From: Escherichia coli
GTDB taxonomy: Bacteria; Pseudomonadota; Gammaproteobacteria; Enterobacterales; Enterobacteriaceae
Strand: one strand, 5' to 3'
Length of the DNA: 64,000 nt
NCBI RefSeq assembly: GCF_003334405.1
Contig: NZ_QOWM01000001.1
Position numbers and translations under genes: made by a program. The notes beneath the pieces are model-generated. The model worked only from the letters and a program-made list of their open reading frames with translations, made no database searches and had not been told where the DNA came from. This document shows, one piece after another, positions 20,942-23,433 of the stretch (positions within the stretch are counted from its first letter, which is position 1; each line of letters opens with the position of its first letter).

Positions 20942-21514
20942 TTAGTCAGCACGCCCCATATAACGGCGTTCTTCGATATGGATACGAATTTTTTCGCCCG
21001 GGCTTAAGTATTCTGGTACCTGAATCACCAGACCAGTGCTCAATGTCGCCGGTTTGTTACGGGCGCTGGCAGATGCCCCTTTGATGCCTGGTGCGGTTTC
21101 AACGATTTCCAGATCAACGGTCTGCGGCAGCTCAAGCGCCAGCAGTTGACCGTCCCAGGTCAGCACCTGCATGTCCGGCATGCCGCCCTCTGGCATAAAC
21201 AGCAACTCTTCTTCAATCTGATCTTTGGTGAAGGTATACGGGGTATAGTCTTCTTTATCCATAAAGACATATTCGTTGCCATCGACATAGGAGAAGTCAA
21301 CGTAACGGCGGGTCAGCGTCACGGTGTCAACGATATCATCACCTTTGAAACGCTCTTCTACTTTCAGCCCGGTACGGACATCAGAAAAACGCATTTTGTA
21401 CAGCGTAGCGGCACCGCGGGCAGTGGGCGACTGAATATCAATATCCTTAACCAGCAGCAGTTTGCCGTTGTAATTCAGTACCATACCTTTTTTAATTTCG
21501 TTCGCTCTTGGCAT
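20942..21514 (-). CDS. yeiP: Elongation factor P-like protein YeiP (EfpL)
   Basis: 190-aa product from [13 protein letters not shown]; EF-P fold paralogue; the ORF track is extended upstream. Confidence 0.92.
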
Positions 21515-21668
21515 CGAAAAATTCCTGTAGTCGAAAATGTCAAAAATATCGCGACAAAGTACTCGCGACGGGCCTTTCGGGCAAGTGGTATTCGCACTTT
21601 TGCTGGTGCAAAAAAGGTGGTACTGTGCGCGCTCATCAATCCGGTGGTTAACCTTAAGAGAACAACGT

Positions 21669-21923
21669 ATGGAATGCCGTCCGGGTTGCGGGGCGTGTTG
21701 CACTGCCCCTTCAATTTCCAGCCCTATTCCCGGTATGCCAGATGGCAAGCCCGCCAATACGCCCTGCATTCAGCTTGATGAACAGCAACGCTGTAAAATT
21801 TTCACCTCGCCACTGCGACCGAAAGTCTGTGCAGGCTTACAAGCCAGCGCTGAAATGTGCGGTAACTCGCGTCAGCAGGCCATGACCTGGCTTATCGATC
21901 TGGAAATGCTGACCGCGCCTTAA
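21669..21923 (+). CDS. yeiW: UPF0153 cysteine-rich protein YeiW
   Basis: 84-aa product from [11 protein letters not shown]; its stop overlaps the setB stop on the opposite strand. Confidence 0.85.
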
Positions 21924-23101
21924 ACATCTTTAATCCGCAGTAAGCAAAACAGAGTGGCGATAATCATCACCATCGCAAACCAGAACACAGCGTGATAATT
22001 CCAGATCTCGGCGACGATGCCCGCCACTGATCCTGCGATGATCCAGCCCACGCGCGAAGTGTTGGTATAGAGCGTGGTGGCTGAACCCGCCTGACCGGGC
22101 ATCAGATCCTGAAAATAGAGCATCCCGATGCCGCCCAGAATGCCAATAAAAATAGCATTTAGCAGCTGCAAGCCCAACAGAATGACAGGTGAATGCGCCA
22201 TCAGCATTCCTGCGTAAAAACAGACGCCACCCACGGCAGCAACGCGCATTAAGAAACGCTTACCCAGACGTTTGGCGAAATATCCGGCAATCAACATCGT
22301 CGGGATTTCCAGCCCGGCGGCGGTCCCCATCATCACACCGGCCAGTTTCTCGGGAAGATGCAGTTCGTTGATAATAAATAGCGGCATGTTGATGATGTAC
22401 AGGCTGTTCGAGCCCCACATCAATGTACAAATGACAAACAGCAGCAGCGTATCGCGACGGTTACGGCGCGGCGCTTCGATCGTGCCGGTCGCCAGCGGAA
22501 GCTCTTTTTGCATCGACGGTAAAAACAGCCACACCATCACACCGCAAACAATAAACGCTACCGCTGCGCTCAGATACATTACCGTAAAGCTGAAACCCAT
22601 CGCTAAGGCATAAGCCAGCGGTGGGCCAATGACCCATGCCAGTGAAACCTGAGCGCGTAAAAAAGAGCTGAACATCACCGCCTCACGTCCGGTTTTGTCG
22701 GCATGTTCACGGGCAAGGGCAAACATTTGCGGGTTAGCGGTCGAGCCAAAGCTGCTAAGAAAGACGCCAACGAATAGCAAAACAAAGTAGTTGCGATTCC
22801 AGGCAAAAAGGGTGCAGGCCAGCACGCCTAACAGGCAGCAAAAGACAATCAGCGATTTGCGATCGCCGCGCTTATCAGAGCGCCCGGCGAGAAACTGACT
22901 TACCAGAATCCCAATGACAGCGCTGCCGGTAAAGAAGAATCCCACCATCGCCGGACGGGCATGTACTTCATCGGTAAGAAAAATACTGAGTGTCGGGGTT
23001 TGCAGAGCGCCCGCAATACCGGTGAGAAAGGCAACGATTAAAAACGCCGTCGAGGTCAGGTCAAACGATTTCGCGCTGGAGACTGCGGGGGAGTTATGCA
23101 T
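21920..23101 (-). CDS. setB: Sugar efflux transporter SetB (MFS)
   Basis: 393-aa 12-TM ORF. Confidence 0.92.
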
Positions 23102-23383: not shown

Positions 23384-23433
23384 CGATCTTGTCTTTAACC
23401 CTAAGCCAGGTTGGCGCTTTTTTTCTCATAGAG

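Follow-up and report, generated by a model that had tools for sequence, protein, structure and literature searches.

A minimal tail-to-tail overlap of the stop codons of yeiW and setB in Escherichia coli

The yeiW/setB junction and its two genes

The DNA analysed here is a stretch of 64,000 nt from Escherichia coli (contig NZ_QOWM01000001.1 of assembly GCF_003334405.1), referred to below as the window. It is K-12-like, and the 1 kb around the junction studied is 100% identical to that of the K-12-derived strain C600. Three genes occur here in the order setB (minus strand), yeiW (plus strand) and yeiP (minus strand), with the following features at the setB/yeiW junction.

21669..21923, plus strand: yeiW coding sequence, 84 aa (84 codons, ATG at 21669), a YkgJ-family/CxxCxxCC cysteine-cluster protein (RefSeq, Pfam)
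21920..23101, minus strand: setB coding sequence, 393 aa (393 codons from 23101), an MFS sugar efflux transporter (RefSeq, NCBIfam)
21920..21923, both strands: the TTAA tetramer, containing the yeiW TAA at 21921-21923 and, as the complement of 21920-21922, the setB TAA

Based on the sequence and the table of open reading frames, the TTAA at 21920-21923 contains both stop codons. An earlier note on this DNA had stated that the tetramer gives one TAA to yeiW on the plus strand and another to setB on the minus strand, and this proved exact when judged by the sequence, the reading frames and RefSeq; its further statement that no space is left for a terminator between the two genes is true by geometry. 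The coding sequences lie on opposite strands, tail to tail, and overlap by 4 nt, the central TA being common to both stops, in agreement with the RefSeq/PGAP annotation, which in C600 (100% identity) places yeiW at 21669..21923 (+) and setB at 21920..23101 (-).

Of 5426 complete E. coli genomes, 5414 contain the 1-kb stretch around the junction and 5412 the junction segment itself; in a lineage with 96.5% identity in the junction segment, the 4-nt overlap is still annotated. Two clinical isolates of E. coli, strains N24 and EC18, have deletions spanning the junction, by which yeiW and/or the 3' end of setB is truncated.

An overlap of this kind might be an annotation artefact, with one of the two open reading frames being unreal or ending elsewhere, and yeiW does invite the suspicion, as it is short (84 aa) and had no NCBIfam match at E <= 1e-5. 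Against this, YeiW, named YkgJ family cysteine cluster protein in RefSeq, belongs to the Pfam family PF03692 (CxxCxxCC; E-value 1.2e-7, residues 2-60), and its full length is retained in thousands of proteins, nearly all of the 3257 homologues found at E <= 1e-20 being 84 aa long. Its orthologues across Enterobacterales are 63-99% identical, and the position of its stop codon is homologous in nearly all 80 loci. SetB is a member of the NCBIfam equivalog NF011587 (876.2 bits, cut-off 693), with residues 1-393 aligned on profile positions 1-393, and since the profile is matched end to end (1-393 of 393), the C-terminus of SetB is canonical. The family match, the conservation of length and stop position in YeiW and the end-to-end match of SetB led us to reject the artefact reading, which we regard as hardly credible.

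Overlap class and evolution of the junction

By direct enumeration of stop codons, convergent genes cannot overlap by 1-3 nt, and an overlap of 4 nt, the shortest possible, demands the sequence YTAR. [quoted passage not shown] The yeiW/setB pair has the same geometry, with opposite-strand stops sharing the central TA and, as in other convergent overlaps of E. coli, no intergenic terminator. It is no different in kind from the class already described, to which the present data add the depth of conservation and the natural losses, and it is a real, ordinary, already known and annotated member of that class. Eleven convergent gene pairs are present in the 64-kb window. At window positions 9071-9075, yejG (+) and yejF (-) converge with just 3 nt between them, and this pair is also on the published list of MG1655 excludons (PMC12288877).

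The evolution of the junction was followed in 80 yeiW loci (the best 80), with one genome per species, by locating yeiP, yeiW, setB and fruB in each. The full order yeiP-yeiW-setB-fruB was present in 39 species, 33 of which had the exact 4-nt overlap, the tetramer being TTAA in 15 loci, CTAA in 15, CTAG in two and TTAG in one. In the same 39 syntenic loci, the yeiP-yeiW spacer had 20 distinct lengths and the setB-fruB spacer had 16. The first base of the tetramer is the third position of the last Pro codon of YeiW, and setB can stop only if this base is a pyrimidine; the fourth base, paired with the third position in the last Val/Ile codon of SetB, has to be a purine if yeiW is to stop. Because both stops constrain them, the outer bases are limited to transitions, and the tetramers observed follow the pattern predicted from this codon geometry.

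Several lineages have departed from the 4-nt arrangement. In Entomohabitans (L044 3728-3755), the tetramer is CTGA, with the yeiW stop retained and the setB stop lost, resulting in an overlap of 28 nt. Citrobacter sp. MGH106 (L038 3753-3777) carries an insert of 19 nt between the stops, containing the short inverted repeat AGAGCC...GGCTCT, and the stops are separated by 32 nt in Klebsiella indica and 25 nt in K. oxytoca. In Rahnella (L065, L074 and L079, about 3752-3791), SetB is extended by 12 codons relative to E. coli and terminates precisely on the complement of the yeiW stop, apparently through stop capture, and the 4-nt overlap there may have originated independently. In many Erwiniaceae, setB is absent altogether.

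A paper on the opvAB operon of Salmonella points to an insertion at the setB/yeiW site (PMC12902445). Using the setB primer published there, we recovered four metagenome contigs (L085 to L088), which we call Salmonella-like on the basis of the primer match and their open reading frames. In all four, about 1.24 kb separates the setB stop from the yeiW stop (in L086, 2251-3491); this interval, a low-GC island (23-42% GC), contains an opvB-like open reading frame of 221 aa, the end of which matches the published opvB primer, and an opvA-like one of 40 aa. Identities between these contigs and E. coli were 63% for YeiW, 90% for SetB and 98% for YeiP. Owing to the low identity of its YeiW (63%), Salmonella was missing among the best 80 yeiW loci and the best 120 homologues.

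Since the Salmonella-like contigs, K. oxytoca, K. indica and Citrobacter sp. MGH106 keep both genes with their stops separated, the overlap is not obligatory. Judged from these sequences, the junction is ancient and sticky, yet dispensable. Its exact retention across many genera could reflect selection on the overlap itself instead of selection on the two C-termini. The comparative picture is a clean example of how a shared stop tetramer evolves, with the TA fixed, the outer bases changing by transitions only, and rare escape by insertion, one such insert being the horizontally acquired island of the Salmonella-like contigs.

Transcripts, 3' ends and promoter-like blocks

Because each mRNA must reach its own stop codon, an overlap of the setB and yeiW transcripts at their 3' ends is unavoidable and an intergenic terminator is impossible. 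The pair is one of 165 convergent excludons detected in at least 50% of 58 MG1655 transcriptomes (PMC12288877), a call that is nearly automatic for expressed genes whose coding sequences already overlap. As to the consequences that the earlier note had drawn from the geometry, the 3' overlap is right, on the strength of both geometry and published RNA-seq (PMC12288877), and is already in the literature, whereas convergent interference, supported by nothing found here, is unproven.

The Term-seq data of Adams et al. 2021 (PMC7815308) were converted to window coordinates (window position = 2286964 - MG1655 coordinate), and the conversion was checked at the fruB leader site. Between window positions 21714 and 23425, these data contain no curated 3' end on either strand under two conditions, and no discrete 3' end of setB or of full-length yeiW is present in published Term-seq data for this interval. 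From 21465 to 22064, there was one strong signal, at 21713/21714, and no further 3' end or Rho region. A search of Rfam gave no family match within 20.7-23.5 kb. The features bearing on transcription are as follows.

21556..21584, minus strand: candidate yeiP (efpL) promoter, with -35 TTGCCC, a 17-nt spacer and -10 TACTTT, overlapping a palindrome scored as a terminator
21618..21626, plus strand: candidate yeiW promoter, an extended -10 TGgTACTGT in a block conserved across genera
21669..21919, minus strand: putative setB 3' extension, antisense to all of yeiW, G-rich and a poor Rho substrate, with read-through toward the yeiP promoter/gene
21690..21714, plus strand: yeiW-internal hairpin GGGGCGTGTTGCACTGCCCC followed by TTCAA (terminator scan; Term-seq 3' end)
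21907..21946, both strands: imperfect palindrome predicted to form a 15-bp interrupted hairpin in either transcript (RNA folds)
21924..22063, plus strand: predicted first ~140 nt of RNA reading through from yeiW, which is untranslated, lies antisense to the 3' end of setB and is richer in C than in G, a candidate for Rho loading

The segment 21556-21626 in the yeiP-yeiW spacer contains back-to-back blocks that are conserved across genera and read as divergent promoters of yeiP and yeiW. The region upstream of yeiW has been reported to confer vanillin-inducible expression (4.3-fold), with which the conserved extended -10 block is consistent (PMC5291986). We also considered a hairpin at 21569-21548 (-) as a terminator of setB beyond yeiW, and rejected it: the sequence block, conserved in 44 species, has the look of a yeiP promoter, the arms of the hairpin are not preserved, and there is no Term-seq 3' end at the site.

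Within yeiW, the hairpin GGGGCGTGTTGCACTGCCCC followed by TTCAATTTCC was the only terminator-like hairpin that the scan reported on the plus strand, and it coincides with the dominant yeiW-sense 3' end at 21713/21714 (MG1655 2265251/2265250), which lies 44-45 nt past the yeiW ATG and is represented by 66368 and 52260 reads (PMC7815308). This end has an intrinsic terminator score of 6.97, a score of at least 3.0 suggesting intrinsic termination, and is not a Rho region, its Rho score from the BCM data being 1.36 and not significant (PMC7815308). The hairpin may halt much of yeiW transcription before setB and, in laboratory culture, restrict convergent traffic, yet DirectRNA reads were about equal upstream and downstream of it (26 vs 27). 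An abundant RNA of about 80 nt would result from the end at 21713/21714 together with the candidate promoter at 21618-21626. Codons coding for CxxCxxCC form this hairpin. A reading of it as a conserved structure was rejected, since the stem is largely dictated by the coding of CGACCTAP and the only free (middle) pair showed no covariation, being paired in 38 of 80 loci compared with 33 +/- 3.2 in shuffles. The tail is T-richer in K-12 (TTCAATTTCC) than in the E. coli genome L005 (CTCAATCTCC).

Beyond the stop codons, the composition of the two RNAs differs. On the plus strand, the C/G ratio over 21924..22063 is 1.3-1.6, the median for the window being 0.95 and its 95th percentile 1.61, and the terminator scan gave no plus strand terminator-like site in setB; on composition, this yeiW read-through RNA is probably ended by Rho. 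In the setB RNA past its stop, the C/G ratio is 0.5-1.0 for the first 200 nt. Between 20.7 and 23.5 kb, a single sigma-70-like promoter match (9 of 12 positions) was found, at 22368-22396 (+) and antisense within setB, and a binding peak of the sigma-28 holoenzyme inside setB has been found by genomic SELEX (PMC5493296); either could add antisense transcription within setB.

Origin of the overlap and rival explanations

We consider the junction to be a minimal, annotated YTAR tail-to-tail overlap that is passively kept and in which interference is a by-product, an account as a whole to which we assign a probability of about 0.82. Most likely, the overlap originated when a stop codon or spacer was lost and a stop on the complement of the partner's stop was then captured; Entomohabitans and Rahnella illustrate such mutational paths in nature. 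Thereafter it would persist passively: the central TA is required by both genes, the outer two bases could change by transitions only, and any insertion or deletion would harm a conserved C-terminus. With no terminator between the genes, each mRNA runs antisense into its partner. On the yeiW side, the dominant sense 3' end in K-12 lies at the intrinsic-terminator-like hairpin 44 nt into the open reading frame, and the RNA that passes the stop codon, being untranslated, C-rich and G-poor, is probably ended by Rho inside setB; transcripts of setB probably cross yeiW toward yeiP. Mutual interference would then be a probably weak by-product, with a putative regulatory role at most. Given the excludon call (PMC12288877) and the inducible yeiW promoter (PMC5291986), condition-specific antisense effects on setB are possible.

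The palindrome at 21907-21946 might instead be a bidirectional terminator, built from the last codons of both genes, that stops or positions the converging polymerases, and single-molecule work has shown that head-on collisions at defined positions between convergent genes require a stem-loop (bioRxiv 10.1101/2022.10.23.513370). A stem-loop is indeed present at this convergent boundary: a 15-bp interrupted hairpin can form on both strands, its 56-nt fold has a free energy of -16.5 kcal/mol with a z-score of about -2.1, and about 75% of the pair cells are pairable across 38 species. However, the shuffled alignments pair equally well (74.7% of cells vs 74.8% shuffled) and there is no excess of covariation (0.156 vs 0.148), the pairing being explained by conserved codons and column composition. 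Neither is the sequence that of a G+C-rich hairpin flanked by A- and U-tracts, as the setB strand has a weak U-tract after the hairpin (UUUCC) and the yeiW strand has none (AAACAG); the terminator scan did not report the hairpin, Term-seq has no 3' end in the corresponding interval (MG1655 2264900-2265099), and half of the stem is under translation in each mRNA. The setB/yeiW stem thus differs from the published collision/bidirectional terminators in being coding sequence with neither A/U tracts, covariation nor mapped 3' ends. We found evolutionary maintenance no more than 3' ends at this site and rejected a conserved bidirectional terminator at 21907-21946, which is very unlikely; the hairpin looks like a by-product of conserved C-terminal codons.

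A functional role has also to be weighed, in which the pair would be a convergent excludon, or a noncontiguous operon with yeiW antisense between setB and yeiP. Induced yeiW RNA would enter setB and lower SetB through polymerase collision and cleavage of the duplex by RNase III, setB read-through would act likewise on yeiW, and the yeiW-internal terminator would gate the effect. The place of setB-yeiW among the 165 MG1655 convergent excludons (PMC12288877), the vanillin-responsive promoter of yeiW (PMC5291986) and the conservation of both the exact junction and the setB-yeiW-yeiP order across Enterobacteriaceae are in keeping with such a role, and the layout suits the schemes drawn for excludons and noncontiguous operons (PMC7154746). 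Like known convergent excludons (PMC12288877; PMC7154746), the two genes lack a terminator between them and have overlapping transcripts; but mutually exclusive expression by interference and RNase III, the outcome that defines excludons, is putative for setB-yeiW, the transcript overlap follows trivially from the coding sequences, and the excludon call says little once these overlap. In the S. aureus noncontiguous operon menE-menC-MW1733-ytkD-MW1731 (PMC7154746), an antisense gene lies between co-directional genes as yeiW does between setB and yeiP, whereas co-transcription of setB and yeiP is putative and yeiP has a conserved promoter-like block of its own; furthermore, setB-yeiW-yeiP is not among the only three noncontiguous operons that ExcludonFinder reported in E. 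coli (PMC12288877). The junction has also been broken several times with neither gene being lost, the dominant yeiW-sense 3' end falls 44 nt into the open reading frame, and SetB and YeiW have no known functional link. We therefore regard a functional excludon or noncontiguous operon as unlikely. Quite unlikely, too, is the stronger proposal that the junction and the nested setB/antisense yeiW/yeiP arrangement form a selected module, in which a stress-induced, hairpin-gated yeiW RNA would tune sugar efflux via setB while setB read-through would feed or interfere with yeiW and efpL (yeiP).

On its own, the yeiW/setB overlap matters little: all annotations of E. coli include it, overlaps of this class were described long ago, and the pair is already listed as an excludon. 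If yeiW induction proved to be coupled to SetB levels by the overlap, this would add another worked case to the excludons of E. coli and would establish no new principle.

Other RNA features were observed elsewhere in the window. A very strong "orphan" Term-seq 3' end, with 218310 and 431335 reads, is located at 23405-23425 (+) (PMC7815308). It falls at a hairpin with a T7 tract (AGCCAGGTTGGCGCTTTTTTT), and the ATG of fruB follows 44 nt downstream. The site is flanked by two GCTGAAnCGTTTCA palindromes, which we take to resemble Cra operators. This site, for which there was no Rfam family match, may act on fruBKA as a terminator or attenuator in the leader. Matches to Rfam were found at four positions in the window.

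680-753, minus strand: tRNA-Pro
4469-4494, minus strand: L25 leader upstream of rplY
50003-50080, plus strand: naRNA4 (CssrE)
61729-61809, plus strand: Peptidase-S11 RNA upstream of pbpG
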